Part shown: in pieces, positions 55-47,161 of the stretch
Layout: each line of letters opens with the position of its first letter
How positions within the stretch are numbered: the stretch's first letter is position 1
Source: a virus
Taxonomy: Duplodnaviria > Heunggongvirae > Uroviricota > Caudoviricetes
Length of the DNA: 48,692 nt
IMG/VR virus record: IMGVR_UViG_2654588006_000004
Direction: 5' to 3' (one strand)
Position numbers and translations under genes: made by a program
Notes under the pieces: model-generated
Seen by the model: the letters and a program-made list of their open reading frames with translations, nothing else
Told to the model about the DNA's origin: nothing
Database searches by the model: none

Positions 55-639
55 TTACTCCCTGACAGGATTTGCAGGCCACTCAATATCAGGTGCAGTT
101 GATGTATCAACACGGTTCAGCAATACCCGATACTTCTTCCAGGCTTCCAGCAACGACGCCTCTTCTTCCGTTGCGATCTCCAGATCTACAGCATCCTGAA
201 GCGGCGCTATATGCTCACTGGCTACCTGCATCAGGCTGTTTTTTGTTTCTTCCGCCTCCCGGATCCGGAACAGTTTTTCTGCTTCCGTATCCTTCACCCA
301 GACTGTACCGTTCCACTTCTGAAACTCCCCTTCCGGGGATAACCAGGTGACATTTTCCGGTAATGAGCCGAGTTCAGAAATAAATAACGCGTCGCCGGAA
401 GCCACGTCATAGACCGTTTTACCACGATGGTCTTCAACGAGATGCCACGATGCCTCATCACTGTTGAAAACAGCCACGAAGCCTGCCGGAATATCTGGCG
501 GTGCAATATCGGTACTGTTTGCAGGCAGACCTGTATGAGGCGGAATATATGCGTCACCTTCACCAATAAATTCATTAGTTCCGGCCAGCAGGTTATAAAT
601 TTTTATGGTCCGTGCTTGTTCACTCATTCTGAATGCCAT
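55..639 (-). CDS. tfaR: Tail fibre assembly protein (Tfa)
   Basis: 194-aa ORF immediately downstream of the side tail fibre gene; resembles lambda/Rac Tfa. Start codon overlaps the stf stop at 639. Confidence 0.85.
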
Positions 640-3600
640 TATGCGAGCCTCACAATATAGTTAAATGCGATGTTTTTGACGGTGTTTTCCGCGTTACCAG
701 CAGCGTTAACGGTGATGGTGTGTCCATGTGAGCCAATCGCAACCGAGTGCGTATGCGCACCAATACCTACAGTATGTGCATGTGCGCCAGAACTTGCTGC
801 AGTACCAGACAGCGAGTGGGTATGAGCACCTGCTGACTGTGTCTGAATACGTTGATAATACGATCTACTGGAAGAAGTCCCCGGGCTTACTTGATACTGT
901 GAATCCTTGACATAAGTGAACCCACCGCCATCATAAAATGCTAACGCAGAACCGCCGCCTCCTGGCCAACGAATACCATTACCATGAGTATGAGCACCGG
1001 CAGACCCCGTAGAGCCACTCAGACTGTGCGTATGCGCCCCGGTGTTATTCGTGGATTTAGTGCCGTAATCAAACGACGATGTGGTTTTCGTCCCCAAATC
1101 CGTACTGGATGCGCTGGCGCTGTGGGTGTGCGATTTAATGCCGTCCTGTTCCTGAGACAATACGGCACGACCACTGGCAGGTTTGCCCTTAATCGTCCAG
1201 CCACGCATATCAGGGATCACGCCTGACGGATAAGCGGCAGCAAGTTTCGGGTAGGCAGATTTGTCAAAAGTCTGCCCCTGCATCAGGGCATAACCAGACG
1301 GAACGGTATCTGATGGCCACGGGATTGGTGCGCCGACTGGGTAGCTTTCTGGTGGAAGATTTTTCGAGGTATAAACTTCTGCCCAGTCTTCCTCAAAACC
1401 ATAGCCATCTCTTGAAGAACGGTAGAACAGACCACCATTTCTGTAATGCGCCTTCATCTGCAGGGTCCGGCAACTTCCGACTCCGGTATAGAAGTTAACC
1501 AGAATATAGCTGTCGCCAGAGCGGGTGACATTATAAGCGCCTGATTCGGCATTCCAGGGAACGCCACCATCCGCATCGGCATATGTATCCGTTGCCCTTC
1601 TGGCAAAAGCAGCCACATGCGCGGCGGTTAAAGTAATATCTCTGGAACCATCAAACTCAACACCAGAAACCCGTCTTGGCGTTTGCAGCTTTGTTGCTGT
1701 TAATGCATTACCGTTCAGACTTGCGGACAGTTTGGTTCCAATAACCAGTTCGCCGGTTGCGTTATCAATAGCAAACGGTCTTAATGTATTCCAGCCACCA
1801 TAAACATCACCTTGATTGGTAAGCAGCAGGTAAGTTTTAGCGCCATCATTACGCCATAATGCACCATACTCCCCACCTATCATTCGAATCTGATTACCAC
1901 CACGCGCTACAATTTCGTCTGTGGCAAAAAGTTTTTTGCACGACAAGTTATCGTTAACGATTAACGAATGAGACTCATAAAAACCACGGCCACTCTTAAA
2001 ATCAAGGATAACGTCCGCCGCGATACATTCAGTCGCTGGATTTGTTGCCCCAAACTTATAGGTCGTATCATTAACAACGAGATCAGCACCAGGTGCGGAT
2101 ATTGACAGGCCATCTTCAATAAACGCAAAAACAGGGAAAGCAGCACCATCAACATAGAACACAGAGCGCAAATCATCGCCCTTATTACTCATCATTATTG
2201 AGTGGATGGCTCGTTCATTGTTTTGATATTGCCAGAACATTCCATAAGCATAACGCCCCCTGTCAGTCCAGCCACCAGGCATAACAAACCCGTTAAACTC
2301 GCAGTTATTCATCGGATCGCCTGCGGTTCGCGTTGCCGTGGTGATAATGACCCTTGATGCCAGTTCGCTTACTGAGCCAGCAGAACGCATAACAACAACA
2401 GGGTAATATCTTCCAGATATTGCACCTGCAGGAGCGTTAACCCGCACATAACGCATACCACGCTTATCAGCAAAGTCTGTTTTACTGACCGCGTTAATGT
2501 TGTTCAGGAAGCGTCCCTTATCGGGTATATCAGCGCCGTTCTGGTCTTTCTGCAGACGTTTCTCTGCATTGTCATAGGCTGATTTTACTGCCTTTGGCGT
2601 TGCCGCCAGCGTTTCAGACGAACTGTTGGTCGCACTGCTGAGCTGTACTATCCCCTTTTTCGTCGTGCTCGCATCCTCAAGCGCCACGGCGGATGCAATA
2701 TCCTCTGCCCGTTTTGCCGCTGTCTCAGCGCGCGTTGCTGCGGATTCCGCCGTACTTTTGCTCTGAGCTGCTGCCGTCGCACTGCCAGCTGCCTCTGTCG
2801 CCTTCGTGGATGCCGTCGTGGCGCTGCTCTTCGCTGCTGACGCCTGTCTGGTCGCCTCATCTTTTGAAGCAGACGCAGATGATGCCGATGACGCTGCCGA
2901 ACTGGCGGACGATGCGGCTGCCGTTTTTGAGGATTCTGCACGGGTTTCCGACGCTTTCGCATTCGTTTCGGATGTCTTCGCTGCGGAAGCAGACCTCGCT
3001 GCTGCGCTGGCCTGTACAGCGGCTTCGCCAGCCTTCGTTGTGGCTGTTGAAGCGGACGATGCAGCACTTTCTGCCGATTTTCCGGCGGCGGTGGCACTGG
3101 CTGAGGCCTGCCCGGCATTTGTTGACGCGGCGCTGGCAGATGAGGCAGCCGCTGTTTTTGAGTCTGCTGCTGCGGAGGCACTCTGTGCTGCTGCCGTCTC
3201 AGAAGACTTAGCGTTCGTCTCGGACGTTTTTGCCGCCTTCGCGGAATTTCCTGCCGCTGTTGCCGAGGAAGCTGCGCTGCTGGCGCTCGAGGCTGCGCTC
3301 GTTTCTGATGATTTTGCCGCCTCTTTTGAAGCCGACGCATCCCGGGCTGAGGTGGCAGCTTCTGACGCTTTCGTGGTCGCGGTGGATGCTGAAGTGGCTG
3401 CTGATTGTTGTGACGCTGCCGCATTCGTTTCTGACGTTTTTGCCGCAGCGGCACTGGTGGCCGCCGCGCTTTTTGAGGACTCTGCAGCGGCAGCACTTTT
3501 TGATGCTTCAGTGGCCTTTGCTGATGCCGTTCCTGCGCTGGAAGACGCTGACTGAGCCGACGAAGCGGCCTGTCCGGCTGACGTGCTGGCTGCGCGTGCT

Positions 3601-10320: not shown

Positions 10321-10653
10321 TCACCACTTCGTCAAACTGACACGAAAAATCGGTATAGGTGATATGTTCTGTCGCTGACCACGTTCGACACACCACTCTG
10401 ATTTTTCTGTTAATACCAGGCGGGCGCCAAAAAAATATTTATAGCCTTCATGCCGGGCTAAAAATTTTTCAAATGAATCACGTTCATTCGCCTCAACTTT
10501 GAAATCACAGGTGAAAACGCGCAGAGAATGATTAAGTCCATTTGGACTTCGTTGCTCATAACCATCGCCAAATCTTACAGTTTTTATCGATGGTTTATTT
10601 TCTGTTTTCATTCCATCCTCTGGTAACCAGTGAAATTCTTCCGTATTAGCCAC
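10321..10653 (-). CDS. M: Minor tail protein M-like
   Basis: 110 aa; VRFGDGYEQRSPNGLN resembles lambda M VRFGDGYSQRAPAGLN; overlaps end of tape measure gene by 8 nt. Confidence 0.7.
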   Translation of the reverse strand: MANTEEFHWLPEDGMKTENKPSIKTVRFGDGYEQRSPNGLNHSLRVFTCDFKVEANERDSFEKFLARHEGYKYFFGARLVLTEKSEWCVERGQRQNISPIPIFRVSLTKW

Positions 10654-11386
10654 TTAACATTCCCCCATCACGTCGCATATTTAACAGATTGCCCTGCACC
10701 CGCTGATCAACCATCCCCATAAGTGCTTTTATTGCCTGAGGGCCAATCTCTCCATTCTGGCCGTCATTTTGAATAGTGATTTGGTATACAGGGGCATAGG
10801 TAATATCTCCGCCTCCATTACCACTTTTACTATTAATAGCTCTGACACCAAGAGAACCATCGGAAGTTCGTGTTAATGGCATAATGGCTTCCGGACCAGC
10901 CTCACCAAAAACACCAGCCCCTTTTGCAAAAGCAAAAAATTGCGGGGAATCATAAATACCGTTCGAATACGTGTTCAATGACGGAGACTCATAAACACCG
11001 CCCTTTGCATTCGGAATAAATTTACTAATAGCACTCCCGATAGTTCCTAAAATCCCCCCCGAAGAACTGTTACTAATGCTGTCGAAAATCCGAGTAATTG
11101 AAGCCTTTAATGCTATTCGACTAAGATCCGAAATCACGGAAGTAGCGAAAGAACGAAAATTTGCCTTGCCTGTCGTGACAAAATCACCCAGCGCATCGGT
11201 CATTCCATCAAACATCTGAGTCGTGGTTGATTTTATCTGCTCACTGATATCCTTAGTGTCATCCAGCCAGTTATTGAATCCCTGGGAGGAACCACTAACC
11301 CAGTCTCCTGCCTGAATATCGAGCTGCTCGTTTTTCTGTCTGACAATTTCTTTTTCTCGTTCCAGAGCATCATTCAGAGCCTGCAT
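10646..11386 (-). CDS. Tape measure protein, C-terminal segment (downstream of an in-frame TAG)
   Basis: 246-aa ORF in the same frame as the 828-aa ORF upstream, separated only by TAG + 2 codons; Gly-rich C-terminal region with GVFGEAGPEAIMPL-type motif. Confidence 0.6.
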   Translation of the reverse strand: MQALNDALEREKEIVRQKNEQLDIQAGDWVSGSSQGFNNWLDDTKDISEQIKSTTTQMFDGMTDALGDFVTTGKANFRSFATSVISDLSRIALKASITRIFDSISNSSSGGILGTIGSAISKFIPNAKGGVYESPSLNTYSNGIYDSPQFFAFAKGAGVFGEAGPEAIMPLTRTSDGSLGVRAINSKSGNGGGDITYAPVYQITIQNDGQNGEIGPQAIKALMGMVDQRVQGNLLNMRRDGGMLSG

Positions 11387-11392
11387 TTTCTC

Positions 11393-13879
11393 CTAAAAAA
11401 CATGATTTGACATCCCACGGGATTTATCTGCATAGTCACGTTCAAGTTGCAGACGCTGATTGTTATATTCACGTTCAATCCGCAGTAATTCCTGCTGGCG
11501 TTGCTGATTTTTATCGCCAACCCCATAACCAGCAATCTGAATATCATACCCCTGTTGACGATTATCAATCGAAGCCTGCAATGAATCACGCCATGCAGCT
11601 ATTTCGGCGGATTCCTTGATTAGCCTGTTATTTTTTTCAATCGCAACATTTTTCTCCATCAACGCGGTTATTTCTTCCCGGTGTAAGAGAAGCGATTTCT
11701 GATCCTTGGTTAATTTCGATGACGGTCGTGACTCCAGGTCGGCAATCTGCTGACGCCACTTAACCAGTTCCTGTTCAGAGGAACTTAATTTAACGGTTAA
11801 TTCAGTTTGTGAACTTAGTAACGCATTCTGTTGATTCAGATGATCAATCATTCGTTGGGCAGCATCATCCGAATAACCTTTCGCCTTTGGTTGCTTTGGA
11901 TCTTTATAACGCTCATTTATTTGAGCGATAAGATTATTATATTCTTCCTTTGAATACTGACTCTTTAGTTTTTCCAGTTTTGCAAGTTCACTAGCTCTCT
12001 GCTGCTCCCGGGTCTGATATTGTTTTGAAAAGGCATCTGCTCTCTGTCTGAGTTCAATTCCTTCCTGTTGTCGCTTGTTGTAATCGTTTATTGATGAATT
12101 TAGTACGTCCTGAGCAATTTTTTCTGCTTGAAGTACGCCCAATTGCTGCTTTAATCGTGCCAGCCTTTTATTTTGAGCTCCGCCATCTCCAATGCCACCT
12201 AACCCGAAAACTCCGGGTCGGGTATTTTTTTCTATTTCATCAATTTGACGGAGAACATCTGAGATTTTTTGATCAAGGGAGGCCTCACGGCCAATATCCA
12301 GCATGGAATCCCATGCCCATTTTGCGGAGTCTGCGACAGCTTTCCATGCAGTCTCAAGATAACCAAGATTTTCTTTAATCTGGTTGGTGCGCTGGATCAT
12401 TGAGGATGAGTATGCTTCTGTCGCAATGCGGGCGGCCTCCTGCTGGTTCCCTTCATCCTGTAGCGCCTTAATCTGGTTATAAGTCGCAATTGTCAGAAAA
12501 TGGTACTGATCATTAAGTTTTGATATGGCACTGACAGGATCCTTTGCAATTTCATTGAAGTCATTAACCAGTTGTTCGGTTGATATTCCTGTTACTTCGC
12601 TCGTTTTTACTATCGCTGTCGTCACTTGCTCCAGCGAACTGCTCGCTACCTTTCCCGAACGCACAAGCTGGTTTAATACTGCCGCCGCAGCGCCAGTTGT
12701 CGAATCAGCCGCATTCCCGGCACGTTGAGCTATATCGGCCAATTGCCCGCTGGTTGTCCCCAACTGATTTCCGGTAAGAATAAGAGATTTATTAAATTCG
12801 TCCTGCTCCTGAGAGCCTTTATAGTAAGCCAGCCCTAAGACGCCAACGGCTGCTGCGGCCAGGGTAAAAGGATTAATTAATCCCAGCACATAAGAACCAA
12901 CACCTTTGATCGCCGGGCCAATCCCACCGAACATATCTTTTAGCTGGCCGCCCTGCTGCATTAACACCATAAAAGGCGACTGACCAGTGGACAACCCAAC
13001 AACAATATCCGTCATTTGTGCAGGCAACATGCGCATAGCAAAAGCCGTTTGTTTTGCCGACATTCCGGTTTTGCTTAATTGAGATTGAGTAACCTCAAGC
13101 TCACTCCGCATAGCACGAAGTTTTCCAGAAAGTTCCTCATACATTTCAGGAGAGAGCATCCCCTTAGCTTTTGCTTCATTGAGCTGTTTCTGTTGTTCTA
13201 CCAGACGATTAAAAGCAGTTCCGACAGGGTCAAGTTGAGCAATCAGACGTTGCAAAGCAGCAACCTGTTCATCATGCGCTTTTGCTGCTTCTCGCTCTGC
13301 CTGAGCCTCTCCGGTAAGCTCTCGCCGTGTTTCCTGTATTTTTCGGCTATAATTCTCAAACTGAGAACCATTTATTTTCCCGGATGCAAACGCAGCATTA
13401 AGTTCATCCTGCTGTTGTTCAAGATTTCTTAGCGCCGCAACCAGAGGGTCGATCTTGTCCAGCATTCTTTGAAAGGCCTGAGCCTGCGATTCCTGCTGGG
13501 CGGCAGCAAGTTTTCCGGCCTTCTCGGCTTCTCTCTGCGCTTGCGCAACCCCGCTCAATTCCTCTGTGGTTTCATTAAGTTTACGGACAAGAAATTCATA
13601 TTCTTCTTTATCAATAAGCCCTTTATCGAAAAATTTCTTTAATTCAGAATAGCGTCGACCGACAGTATCAATTGCGGCACCAACTGGATCAATAGCTGCT
13701 TTTAATTTTGCGAGCGCGTTCTTCTCATCTTCTGTTGCCTTAGTCACTTTCCCTGCGCTATTTGCAGCAGTTTCCCCGGCCTGCGTCATTTTGACTAATG
13801 AGGAGGTCAGATTGTCAGCATTATTTTTTGCTCCAGTGCTATCAATAATTATTGCGAGACGCGAGGTTTGCTCTGCCAT
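11393..13879 (-). CDS. Tail tape measure protein, N-terminal 828-aa portion ending at an in-frame amber codon
   Basis: Long coiled-coil-rich ORF between G/T and M; ends ...SNHVF then TAG at 11393-11395. Confidence 0.75.
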
Positions 13880-13894
13880 TTATTAAAACTCCAG

Positions 13895-13920
13895 ACAACA
13901 AAAAGCCCACCGAAGTGGGT
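13895..13920 (-). terminator. Hairpin with UUCG loop plus U-tract on the minus-strand transcript, between T and tape measure genes
   Basis: Plus strand acaacaaaaaGCCCACcgaaGTGGGT; on the minus strand this gives CCCAC-UUCG-GUGGG followed by CUUUUUGUUG, immediately upstream of the tape measure RBS. Confidence 0.4.
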
Positions 13921-14042: not shown

Positions 14043-14363
14043 CTACACACACTGCTCCTGAAAATACTGGTCATCCAGTGCAAAGATCACTGCTTCAAAT
14101 TCATCGCGCTCAATCAATACCGGATGAGTGGCTAAATATTCATTTATCTCTGTCAGAGATAAAGGCAAAGGCACCCCAGCCATTCCAGCATAACGTCGGG
14201 CACGGGATATTACCGAATAGGCGTACAACAACTCCTTAAGCACCGGGTCTATTTCTGGTTCCGGTATCGGTGGCAACCTGAGTTTTTCTCGCTTCCATCT
14301 TGCCTTTTCCCCCCTTTCTCCCCCGAACTCCGATAACCACCGCTGGGCAGCTATGGCTTTTTT
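14043..14363 (-). CDS. Tail assembly chaperone T-frame extension (G-T fusion via -1 frameshift)
   Basis: The -1 frame relative to G is open from the slippery heptamer to the stop at 14043-14045 (104 codons); the track ORF 14043-14276 (TTG start) is its C-terminal part. Confidence 0.7.
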   Translation of the reverse strand, partial: KKAIAAQRWLSEFGGERGEKARWKREKLRLPPIPEPEIDPVLKELLYAYSVISRARRYAGMAGVPLPLSLTEINEYLATHPVLIERDEFEAVIFALDDQYFQEQCV

Positions 14364-14812
14364 ATCGTATCCTGCTTCTGCTGCTCTTTACCCTGGGCGA
14401 TGCTGGCTGCTTCTGCAAGGATCTGCCAGTACAACTCTGGATTCTGCTTGAGCAGCGCGATCCCTCGTTCTGCCGTATATTCCAGTGCAACCTCAACACC
14501 ATTAACCAGTTCACCAACCCCTTTCCAGTCTTTCAGCAGATAACGAGCGGCATTATCAATGAGTAAATCATCAACAGAATCCACCTCGGAAACCTTTGAA
14601 ATATCAAACTCCTTCGTTCCGACGTGCAAACTGGCATCCATTTTCTCAATGTGGCGACGGATTAATGCATTACGGGAGCGATACTGATCGTTATCGCTGC
14701 TTGCCACCAACAGTTTTAACCCGTCTACAGGTTTTAAGTCCTTCATTGGCGTAAACCAGCGTTCTCCACCAATGATAATTTTCTGATTAAGAATAAACAT
14801 CCATAACCTCAT
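14351..14812 (-). CDS. G: Tail assembly chaperone G
   Basis: 153-aa ORF directly upstream of the tape measure gene, with a 3' slippery site and overlapping -1 frame ORF (G/GT arrangement). Confidence 0.75.
   Translation of the reverse strand: MRLWMFILNQKIIIGGERWFTPMKDLKPVDGLKLLVASSDNDQYRSRNALIRRHIEKMDASLHVGTKEFDISKVSEVDSVDDLLIDNAARYLLKDWKGVGELVNGVEVALEYTAERGIALLKQNPELYWQILAEAASIAQGKEQQKQDTIKKP
14357..14363 (-). other. Programmed -1 frameshift slippery heptamer A_AAA_AAG
   Basis: mRNA reads GAT ACG ATA AAA AAG CCA TAG; the heptamer is identical to the E. coli dnaX slippery sequence and sits two codons before the G stop. Confidence 0.7.
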
Positions 14813-14860: not shown

Positions 14861-15823
14861 TCAACTAATCGCCTCAGCACTGGCTTTTGCGATCACGGCA
14901 GCCGGGGAATTTTTTTTTCTGGTTATCGTAGGTGCTTCATCTGCTGCGGTAATGCTCAATTGAACCTGGATAATGTCGCTATTACCCCCATCAGGCCATT
15001 CACCTGACACCTGAACCTTCGGGAAACTGAAAGTGTATGCCCCCTCTCCATTCGAAAGCGTGAAGCTGAACGGAACTGTTTCTCCAGTCAGTGTTTTACT
15101 CCAGATTTCCCACGCGGCTTTAGACCATGAAAGCGTCACCGTACCGGACGGTGTAAAAGTAGTCGGAATATTTGCTCCTGCATAAGGCGAGCCAGTCCCG
15201 ATACAACGCTGTGTCTGGAGTTTGTTATCGAACTGAATATCAAAACTGTCGATACAAAAACCGTTACCTCCGGCAACACCATTCAGGCTTACTGCTGAAA
15301 CCTCCTTAAACGAATAACGTAGCTTTCCTGCACTATCCACAGGTTCGCCTTTGATAAAATTCGTATCATCGGCCTTTGATTCCCAGTCCAGTCCGGCAAA
15401 GGTTACGGTCGCTGTAATATCGCCGTCGTTAGGGATCTGCATTTTCCATGAGCCAACCTGCGCTCCTCTGACGACAGAGGCAATTCCGACATCGGACGCA
15501 TAGGTCGCCAGAGAAAATGTTATTCGCTCATTCCCCATTGTCAGAGAATCGCCTGACCATTCCGCGCCGAAACAGGATGCAAGAAAATCATCATGTTGAC
15601 CCCAGCGAAATTTGGTACCAACATCACCGCCGACATCCACAGTGCCAGGCGTCGCCCCCTGAGCCATCCGGGAGCCACCAATCTCATTATTTTCGCCTTT
15701 ATTCTGGGTGGGTTTTACTCCCCAGCTTGTGCGTTTTAATAAACTCCAGTCACCACTTGCTGGCGTAGTGCCTGCAACCGTCTCCCGGATAAATGCCGAG
15801 ATAACCTTTGCACCTGAACTCAC
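14861..15823 (-). CDS. Major tail (tube) protein, probably with C-terminal Ig-like domain
   Basis: 320-aa ORF immediately upstream of G; position and size consistent with a lambda V-like tube protein. Confidence 0.65.
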   Translation of the reverse strand: MSSGAKVISAFIRETVAGTTPASGDWSLLKRTSWGVKPTQNKGENNEIGGSRMAQGATPGTVDVGGDVGTKFRWGQHDDFLASCFGAEWSGDSLTMGNERITFSLATYASDVGIASVVRGAQVGSWKMQIPNDGDITATVTFAGLDWESKADDTNFIKGEPVDSAGKLRYSFKEVSAVSLNGVAGGNGFCIDSFDIQFDNKLQTQRCIGTGSPYAGANIPTTFTPSGTVTLSWSKAAWEIWSKTLTGETVPFSFTLSNGEGAYTFSFPKVQVSGEWPDGGNSDIIQVQLSITAADEAPTITRKKNSPAAVIAKASAEAIS

Positions 15824-16299: not shown

Positions 16300-16683
16300 T
16301 TACGCTCTCCTTAACTGGATAGAGTAAACTGATGCGGAAGGATCTACACTTGCTGTAATTACCTCGTATCGTTGTAACTGCCTTGATACAGGATCATAAA
16401 TCTCAATAATATGGTCGACAGCTGGTTTATCCGTAACCTCGCATACCAGAGCGGTTAATTTAAGGTCACCATGCAAAATATTAATCCCATCAATTCTGCC
16501 CAGCTTATAACGTGTCAACACGCCTCGCCCGGTATAGATTGCGGTGGATTCGCCGCCAGTTTCCGTCACAGGATCCCAGTGCCGGTGCGTAACGTAAGAA
16601 CCAGAAAAATCACTCACGGCGTCCGCTAAATCCTCATCAAAAGCAGCGGCAACCTCTGACTGAATCTCTTCACGAAGCCCCAT
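16300..16683 (-). CDS. Head-tail joining protein (Z/FII-like position)
   Basis: 127 aa; start overlaps the stop of the upstream gene; synteny only. Confidence 0.4.
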   Translation of the reverse strand: MGLREEIQSEVAAAFDEDLADAVSDFSGSYVTHRHWDPVTETGGESTAIYTGRGVLTRYKLGRIDGINILHGDLKLTALVCEVTDKPAVDHIIEIYDPVSRQLQRYEVITASVDPSASVYSIQLRRA

Positions 16684-17078
16684 TATCCCCCCCTCACAAC
16701 CCTGACTTGTGAGCGACTAAGTCCGTACGGTTTCAGCAGTGCTATCGCAAGCTGTAAATCGGGTTCAAGCAATGCAGTGCTGTTTGCTGGCAACTCAGAA
16801 AATGATTTCGATACACTGACCCCGTCAGCCGACACGGCTTTACTGATAACAACGCCAGAATCATTTTTCTGCTGAAACAACTTACCGAATGAGGCAATTC
16901 TGGCTGCATATGCTCCCGCAAGTTTTACCTCTTCCGGAATACGGGATGGGTTAATTTTCAGGTTGAAGCCATTAAGCCAGGCATTAGCCATTAAAACAGC
17001 TTTATTTTTAGCGTTCTCACTCGTCCAGGCGTTCCCAAACGCATTATCAACGTCATCACAGGTCACGTAAGTGATCAT
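16683..17078 (-). CDS. Head-tail connector / head completion protein
   Basis: 131 aa; downstream of the capsid gene; synteny only. Confidence 0.4.
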   Translation of the reverse strand: MITYVTCDDVDNAFGNAWTSENAKNKAVLMANAWLNGFNLKINPSRIPEEVKLAGAYAARIASFGKLFQQKNDSGVVISKAVSADGVSVSKSFSELPANSTALLEPDLQLAIALLKPYGLSRSQVRVVRGG

Positions 17079-31057: not shown

Positions 31058-31645
31058 TTTTCCTCACATATGTCATATAGTAAAGGATTATATATACCGT
31101 TGTTTTGGACGCTCAAACAGCGAATCAGATCAAATAAAACGCACATTTGTTAACATTTACACAAAGTCTGCGTGGGATATTCTGAAAGAAGATCCATAAT
31201 GTGGAGAGAATCTATTGAAGTGCATGGTGCCGGGTGCCTCCCGGTGAACAAAATGTTCGTGATACCTGTCGGCGACAGAAAAGGTTAATGGTATCACCCC
31301 ACCGCACAGGGGGATTCACCATGCAGGAGTTTTCTTAGCAAACTCACTGCGCGCCCGGCAACTCCCAACCACATAAAATGCGGAGTTTGTGGCATTTATG
31401 CATATAACTCGCAGGAATTAACTTAAAAAACTGATGTCGATCCGGATTAAAAAGAAGCAGGTCATCATCAGATGACTGGAAAAAAGGAAAACAAAAAATA
31501 CTCATCATACCGTTTTGATTGCAGGGATGAGCCTGCTATGCACAATATGCAGAATATAAGCAAGATAAAAATATGCAGGCATATTATTTCGGATTTTGTT
31601 ATTAACACAACCTTTTTAATAATCATTTGGCATACAATAAACCAG

Positions 31646-46764: not shown

Positions 46765-46959
46765 ATGAGATATGACAATGTTAAACCATGTCCATTTTGT
46801 GGTTGTCCATCAGTAACGGTGAAAGCCATTTCAGGATATTACCGAGCGAAGTGTAACGGATGCGAATCCCGAACCGGTTATGGTGGAAGTGAAAAAGAAG
46901 CACTCGAAAGATGGAATAAACGAACCACTGGAAATAATAATGGAGGTGTTCATGTATAA
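46765..46959 (+). CDS. ralR: Restriction alleviation protein RalR (Lar)
   Basis: 64 aa from MRYDNVKPCPFCGCPSVTVKAISGYYRAKCNGCESR... matches recalled RalR. Confidence 0.85.
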   Translation: MRYDNVKPCPFCGCPSVTVKAISGYYRAKCNGCESRTGYGGSEKEALERWNKRTTGNNNGGVHV

Positions 46960-47161
46960 AATTACCGCCACTATTGAAAAGGAAGGTGGCACTCCTACTA
47001 ACTGGACAAGATATTCAAAATCTAAACTAACGAAATCAGAATGCGAAAAAATGCTCTCAGGTAAAAAAGAAGCAGGCGTTTCCAGAGAGCAGAAAGTAAA
47101 ACTGATAAATTTTAATTGCGAGAAACTTCAGTCCTCGAGAATTGCATTGTATTCAAATTAA
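46952..47161 (+). CDS. ydaC: YdaC
   Basis: 69 aa from MYKITATIEKEGGTPTNWTRY...; GGAGG SD; overlaps ralR 3' end by 8 nt. Confidence 0.7.
   Translation: MYKITATIEKEGGTPTNWTRYSKSKLTKSECEKMLSGKKEAGVSREQKVKLINFNCEKLQSSRIALYSN

Follow-up and report, generated by a model that had tools for sequence, protein, structure and literature searches.

The heptamer A_AAA_AAG lies at the end of a G-type tail assembly chaperone gene in a Rac-type prophage, and tandem -1 slippage of the E. coli tRNA-Lys on this heptamer very probably yields two proteins, G as the main product and a GT fusion as the minor one. The gene is ydaY of the Rac prophage. It is encoded on the minus strand of the window, by which we mean the whole stretch of 48,692 nucleotides that was analysed. 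A preliminary description of this DNA had proposed a G-T chaperone frameshift at A_AAA_AAG, and this proposal is supported by the order of the genes, by a match to phrog_313 that runs across the junction, and by a slippery heptamer at each of 173 loci. The pair is a so far unannotated example of a well-known type of frameshift, real but ordinary, and the occurrence of A_AAA_AAG in tail chaperones of E. coli prophages has already been published for the ECs1801 family.

The slippery site and its two reading frames

The main features of the region, all on the minus strand, are the following:

14861..15823, minus strand: gene of the tail tube (major tail protein), directly preceding G (Phage_tube_2, E 9.4e-32; PGAP 'phage tail tube protein')
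14351..14800, minus strand: G-type tail assembly chaperone open reading frame (ORF) of the YdaY family, 149 aa, matching phrog_313, with its stop TAG at 14353..14351 (an upstream in-frame ATG at 14812 gives 153 aa)
14370..14373, minus strand: AGGA, a tetramer resembling a Shine-Dalgarno sequence, 6 nt before the heptamer, candidate weak stimulator
14357..14363, minus strand: slippery heptamer A_AAA_AAG, proposed site of the tRNA-Lys -1 slip, from its phase and conservation
14330..14356, minus strand: local hairpin directly after the heptamer, -11.3 kcal/mol, probably no stimulator
14043..14363, minus strand: T (-1 frame) extension of 106 codons (KKAIAAQRWLSEFGG...QEQCV) and stop TAG at 14045..14043, matching phrog_1189 and with coding-type substitutions
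14043..14800, minus strand: predicted GT fusion, 252 aa (G residues 1-146 and the 106-residue extension), by a -1 shift at 14363..14357
10646..13879, minus strand: tape measure gene downstream of T (TMP_2), with an in-frame amber codon at 11395..11393

We read the geometry of the site directly from the sequence. The G ORF ends GAT ACG ATA AAA AAG CCA TAG on the minus strand, which bears out the ending described earlier (ATA AAA AAG CCA TAG). At 14363..14357 (-), the heptamer is in the X_XXY_YYZ phase, with a single sense codon (CCA) between it and the TAG. In the -1 frame, the last upstream stop is at 14390..14388, and no further stop occurs between 14387 and the TAG at 14045..14043. This makes 106 codons counted from AAA AAA, encoding the 106 residues KKAIAAQRWL...QEQCV, or 104 codons counted from GCC, as had been stated for the frame running to the stop at 14043. 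The open frames of G and T overlap by 34 nt, and A_AAA_AAG is the sole slippery heptamer within this overlap.

The G ORF has two candidate starts. The ATG at 14812 gives a G of 153 aa and a fusion of 256 aa, and the ATG at 14800 gives 149 aa and 252 aa, so that the fusion of about 255 aa predicted earlier holds with either of them. The ATG at 14800 seems the likelier start because the homologues begin there (MFIL or MLII; MFILNQK... in the window) and a GAGG lies six bases upstream. G would then be 149 aa long and GT 252 aa.

Gene identity and neighbourhood

The genes follow one another in the order tail tube (15823..14861), G (14800..14351), T frame (14387..14043), and tape measure (13879..10646), the last with Pfam matches to TMP_2 (E 7e-82) and TMP_4 (E 1e-24). 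On its own, G matches phrog_313, annotated as 'tail assembly chaperone', with an E value of 4e-46 and only over profile positions 13-149 of 258, and the -1 frame part matches phrog_1189, whose function is not known (E 1.4e-36). The -1 fusion matches phrog_313 over positions 13-246 of 258 (E 6e-51, 174 bits). Since this match crosses the junction, the family profile already includes fusions, with which that of the window is colinear; this directly supports its membership in a chaperone family. The match to another 'tail assembly chaperone' profile, phrog_8233, goes from E 0.008 to 4e-8 with the fusion, in an alignment that also spans the junction. The T part and 7 of 16 T homologues have weak, sub-threshold matches to Pfam Phage_TAC_18. 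Searches of NCBIfam with the fusion, and of the sequences of solved structures with the G profile, gave no match. The local Pfam scan of G gave none either; the G homologues carry the newer family PF27119 (Phage_YdaY), found only in precomputed annotations, and PGAP names the gene ydaY.

The window has Rac-type features: the RalA sRNA, an ORF of the size of trkG, and an ORF at the integrase end. RalA is the sRNA antitoxin to the RalR of Rac. The window's Rfam matches that exceed the gathering score, RalA at 46958..47136 (-), IS009 at 98..296 (-), and STnc100 at 31168..31354 (-), identify the window as a Rac-type prophage. It contains no tRNA genes. Of 5,426 complete E. coli genomes, 1,073 contain the same DNA with the same gene pair. 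Strains of the K-12 type have a 5'-truncated copy of ydaY beside ynaK, and the Rac copy of K-12 is a remnant. The copy of the prophage in the window may not build tails at all, because its tape measure gene contains the amber codon at 11395..11393.

In GenBank phage records the pair appears as 'putative protein YdaY' and 'hypothetical protein'. RefSeq uses the label 'protein YdaY', often from an internal start, with an optional 'hypothetical protein', and the RefSeq records that we inspected do not annotate the GT fusion. The literature that we searched contained no paper tying ydaY to frameshifting or tail assembly. The main value of the result is one of annotation; public genome annotation misses the long form GT. 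Recognising the frameshift gives ydaY a function and adds a well-supported family to the frameshifts of phage tail chaperones.

Conservation of the slippery heptamer

We compared the window with 172 related loci from genomes and viral contigs, i.e., 173 loci in all, in which the identity of G ranges from 100% to 55%. They come from Escherichia, Citrobacter, Klebsiella, Raoultella, Siccibacter, Pantoea, and Scandinavium. At the homologous codons, each of the 173 carries a slippery heptamer in phase, so that conservation of slipperiness is a direct observation. The heptamer is A_AAA_AAG in 171 loci and G_GGA_AAG in the other two (L009 from Raoultella and L011 from Pantoea). The codon before AAA AAG is ATA or GTA, and the one before GGA AAG is GTG; the X_XXY pattern is in this way restored, at the cost of a substitution of Lys by Gly in G. 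Alternatives that would break the slippery pattern (AAG AAA or AAG AAG, and ATT or GTN in the preceding codon) are found in none of the 171 loci with A_AAA_AAG. The stop of G lies 3, 21, 75, or 105 nt after the heptamer, depending on the lineage. Judging by these alignments, the position of the stop is free and that of the heptamer is fixed. An additional scan of viral contigs with a distant homologue (P0119) gave no confirmed loci.

A second in-phase heptamer, G_GGA_AAA (in CAG GGA AAA GAG), is present about 30 nt upstream in loci L068-L072, L074-L080, L083-L085, and L006, all of which have an open -1 frame at that point. At the equivalent position (~14393..14399), the non-slippery CAG GGT AAA stands in the window.

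We also estimated how often such a site would arise by chance. AAAAAAG is common in the window (22 copies observed versus 14.8 +/- 3.9 expected), and the two strands contain 596 heptamers with the X_XXY_YYZ pattern. We retained those preceded by a 0-frame ORF of 100 codons or more, with a stop no further than 40 codons away and 60 or more open codons following in the -1 frame. Only 4 of the 596 pass this filter. Two of them fall within real genes, read antisense or in an alternative frame, a third is a G-run that the following gene uses as its ribosome binding site, and the site at 14363 is the one high-efficiency motif in the context of a real gene. The decisive argument against chance is the conservation at all 173 loci.

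Elsewhere in the window, at 16681..16695 (-), the ORF 17078..16683 ends AGG GGG GGA TAA, and the next gene starts at the ATG at 16683 in the -1 frame, overlapping the stop. The G7 run fits the X_XXY_YYZ pattern; a simpler explanation is that it is the ribosome binding site for the separately starting downstream gene.

The -1 frame is coding upstream of any possible start of T

One alternative is that T is an independent gene starting at the TTG at 14276, in which case the in-phase heptamer would be a mere by-product of the two Lys codons that end G. This TTG exists and opens an ORF of 77 aa, and gene callers often predict separate 'hypothetical proteins' at this place. Yet it has no usable Shine-Dalgarno sequence, the nearby AGG being directly adjacent to it, and it is missing in most relatives, whose first in-frame start is codon 32 to 60. 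Across the loci, the first ATG, GTG, or TTG of the -1 frame is codon 29, 32, 40, 42, 50, or 60, and no consistent ribosome binding site precedes these starts. The peptide upstream of them is nevertheless conserved, with variation at third positions, and this conservation extends to its first residues (KKA[IL]xAQxWLxEFGGExGEKAxWxREKLxLPxxPEPEID). The T proteins called in public data vary from 60 to 138 aa, a spread that is expected if no real start exists. Moreover, a by-product of Lys codons does not account for the absence of non-slippery codings of Lys-Lys and of the preceding Ile or Val in 171 loci, nor for the two exceptions, in which Lys is replaced by Gly and the site is still slippery.

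We analysed the substitutions in the 27 codons between the heptamer and the TTG at 14276 of the window, using 15 sequences. The column entropy by codon position of the -1 frame is 0.44, 0.42, and 1.10. The ratio of synonymous to non-synonymous codon differences is 998:694 in the -1 frame, compared with 229:1540 in the 0 frame and 145:1581 in the +1 frame. None of the 15 sequences has a stop in the -1 frame over these codons, whereas 14 of them have one to three stops in the 0 frame. This is direct support for selection on coding in the -1 frame. As the coding pattern lies upstream of any start of T, the stretch must be translated in the -1 frame, which is possible only by continuing from G. 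On these comparisons a separately initiated T protein is very unlikely, because no start codon of the -1 frame is conserved, and we give very little credence to an independent gene starting at TTG 14276. This start was the outcome that the preliminary description had set against its own proposal; it fails because relatives do not conserve this TTG and because the -1 frame already shows a coding pattern over the preceding 27 codons.

The split in distant relatives

Distant relatives in sequenced phages were matched as two pieces in two frames. The Acinetobacter phage vB_AbaS_TRS1 encodes a distant homologue (TRS1_18/TRS1_19, phrog_313; about 39% identity by tblastn over the T part) in the same gene order, and its -1 fusion is annotated as a joined two-piece CDS. 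Its heptamer is G_GGA_AAG, 78 nt before the stop of G, and the Acinetobacter phage TCUAN1 also has G_GGA_AAG. The Pseudomonas phages phiPSA1 (L176) and Aurca01 (L175) have CTG GAA AAG, i.e., G_GAA_AAG, at ...ETLEK|P, and the conserved -1 peptide follows. It also follows in the Erwinia phage Gungnir39 (L178, ~1680..1700), where GTC GCA AAG TAA retains only A_AAG, beside the stop. Over the whole family, the common core of the site is A_AAG.

These relatives bear on a second alternative, in which the frame is changed in transcription, by slippage of the RNA polymerase on the run of A, and not by the ribosome. There are six consecutive A at the site, and realignment on poly-A has been discussed (PMC3711429). 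However, the utilised cases need more than 7 A or more than 8 T (PMC3711429), and relatives with G_GGA_AAG, G_GAA_AAG, or C_GCA_AAG, which have only three or four A, show the same split at the same place. Furthermore, the codon phase of the heptamer is conserved, a feature relevant to ribosomes and not to RNA polymerase. We thus consider transcriptional slippage highly improbable, and slippage of the ribosome remains the preferred explanation.

We searched for an unsplit form of the gene among 1.84 billion representative proteins and found no convincing full-length GT homologue. The G-type matches end at query residues 145-156, mostly 148-150, just past the Lys-Lys, and the T-type matches begin after them. 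Four proteins that cross the junction (P0001, P0002, P0169, and P0207) were rejected as unsplit GT: they are short or come from single contigs, and they resemble assembly indels. That the split is decay, i.e., a frameshift mutation in the once-continuous chaperone gene of a defective prophage, is barely credible: the prophage of the window does have one inactivating mutation, the tape measure amber, and the K-12 copy has degenerated to a remnant, but the same split is found at the same codons in 173 loci and also in sequenced Klebsiella, Erwinia, Pseudomonas, and Acinetobacter phages, with no unsplit full-length homologue among the representative proteins.

Proposed mechanism and frequency of the frameshift

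Most ribosomes would translate G (149 aa) and terminate at the TAG at 14353..14351. A minority, with tRNA-Lys on the AAA and AAG of 14363..14357, would slip back by one base; the tRNA-Lys would then re-pair on AAA AAA, and the -1 frame would be read for 104 codons more to give the GT of 252 aa. By analogy with gpG and gpGT of phage lambda, the role of the G part would be to coat the tape measure protein and that of the T part to recruit the tail tube protein. A fixed low frequency of slippage would set a high G:GT ratio. We infer both the slip itself and the binding partners.

The frequency of slippage is probably between less than 1% and a few per cent. In an E. coli reporter, the -1 efficiency of A_AAA_AAG was 0.29, 4.3, and 39% with no, moderate, and strong stimulators, and that of G_GGA_AAG was 0.28, 3.8, and 43%, respectively (PMC4066793, Table S3). 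The G:GT ratio of lambda is about 30:1 (PMC5009743). The exchange of A_AAA_AAG and G_GGA_AAG within the family agrees with their published equal efficiency in E. coli. A more speculative idea, suggested by the aligned sites and in our view doubtful, is that the series of P-site codons (AAA, GGA, GAA, GCA), combined with an invariant A_AAG, could tune the G:GT ratio. If this were true, the series would include members that use slippage of a single tRNA, perhaps aided by the AGGA or by an adjacent stop.

Candidate stimulatory elements

The preliminary description had suggested a search for a downstream stimulatory structure, and folding found no conserved one. In the window, the fold of the 94 nt that follow the heptamer is no better than those of shuffled sequences (z +0.45). 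The consensus fold of 15 diverse relatives reaches -3.7 kcal/mol and shows no covariation, and the 37-nt windows of six relatives contain no conserved hairpin. We rejected a conserved downstream structure on these three sets of folds. The local hairpin at 14330..14356 (-) has a folding energy of -11.3 kcal/mol, but it does not stand out from shuffled sequences (z -0.43), it is absent in the relatives, and it starts at +1, with zero spacer. Lacking a spacer, it would already be unwound while the heptamer is being decoded.

Upstream, the AGGA 6 nt before the heptamer occurs in TRS1 and in 12 of 13 distinct enterobacterial local contexts, but not in L010, the Pseudomonas phages, or TCUAN1. It coincides with the conserved Gln-Asp/Glu codons of G. 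In 170 of the 173 loci, the heptamer is followed directly by CC. A review gives CC as the most shift-prone 3' dinucleotide for A_AAA_AAG (PMC5009743), and here it is also part of a conserved Ala codon of the -1 frame.

Comparison with known frameshift systems

The pair of the window belongs to the same type of system as the G/GT frameshift of lambda (Levin, Hendrix and Casjens 1993; Xu, Hendrix and Duda 2004, 2013, 2014, as summarised in PMC5009743). Both occupy the same slot between the major tail and tape measure genes, and neither has a known requirement for a 3' structure. The heptamer that the preliminary description had quoted for lambda, G_GGA_AAG, is the one in NC_001416, where we verified the sequence GCG GGA AAG TGT ... 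TGA; its stop comes five codons on, versus one codon in the window. The contrast between this heptamer and the A_AAA_AAG of the window is unsurprising because both occur in this family, two members of which carry the heptamer of lambda, and because both are equally efficient in E. coli. The names G and T taken from lambda are apt for positional analogues, but they do not extend to homology of sequence: hhalign gives probabilities of only 0.14% (G) and 0.16% (T), and the Pfam scan of the window gave no match to the lambda-type families.

The comparison with dnaX, in the earlier wording a dnaX-type heptamer, likewise holds in part. The heptamer is identical, and it is read by the same single tRNA-Lys (mnm5s2UUU), which pairs better with AAA than with AAG (PMC5009743). 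The rest of the dnaX cassette differs: in dnaX the heptamer is preceded at 10 nt by AGGGAG and followed after about 6 nt by a stem-loop, and the shift reaches about 50%, whereas the window has only an AGGA at 6 nt and no conserved 3' structure. The outcome differs as well, as the shift in dnaX leads to early termination and that in the window to an extension of 104 codons.

A parallel in E. coli prophages is ECs1801, from prophage Sp9 of E. coli O157 Sakai, which also has A_AAA_AAG at the very end of a tail chaperone ORF; we confirmed that it ends ...AGA AAA AAG TAG. ECs1801 belongs to cluster A_AAA_AAG_25, listed as a 'true' frameshift and cross-referenced to a GeneTack programmed-frameshift cluster (PMC4066793). 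We take this to be the HK97-like GeneTack cluster of PMC3711429, in which two tail chaperone genes gave 6-7%. ECs1801 is a protein of another family, with 124 aa, and BLASTP produced no alignment between it and the G of the window.

The gap between T and the tape measure gene

The spacing downstream of T also differs from that of lambda. In the lambda record, T and H overlap by 8 nt, whereas the window has a gap of 163 nt between the stop of T (14043) and the start of the tape measure gene (13879). This gap contains a terminator-like hairpin, CCCAC-UUCG-GUGGG followed by CUUUUUGUUG, at 13906..13919 (-), close ahead of the tape measure gene's ribosome binding site. Loci L083, L013, L011, L081, and L148 have different stem sequences, with a hairpin and T-run at the same place, before the Shine-Dalgarno sequence (ggag) of the tape measure gene. 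The hairpin could lower the expression of the tape measure relative to that of the tube and chaperone genes, or it could stabilise the upstream mRNA.
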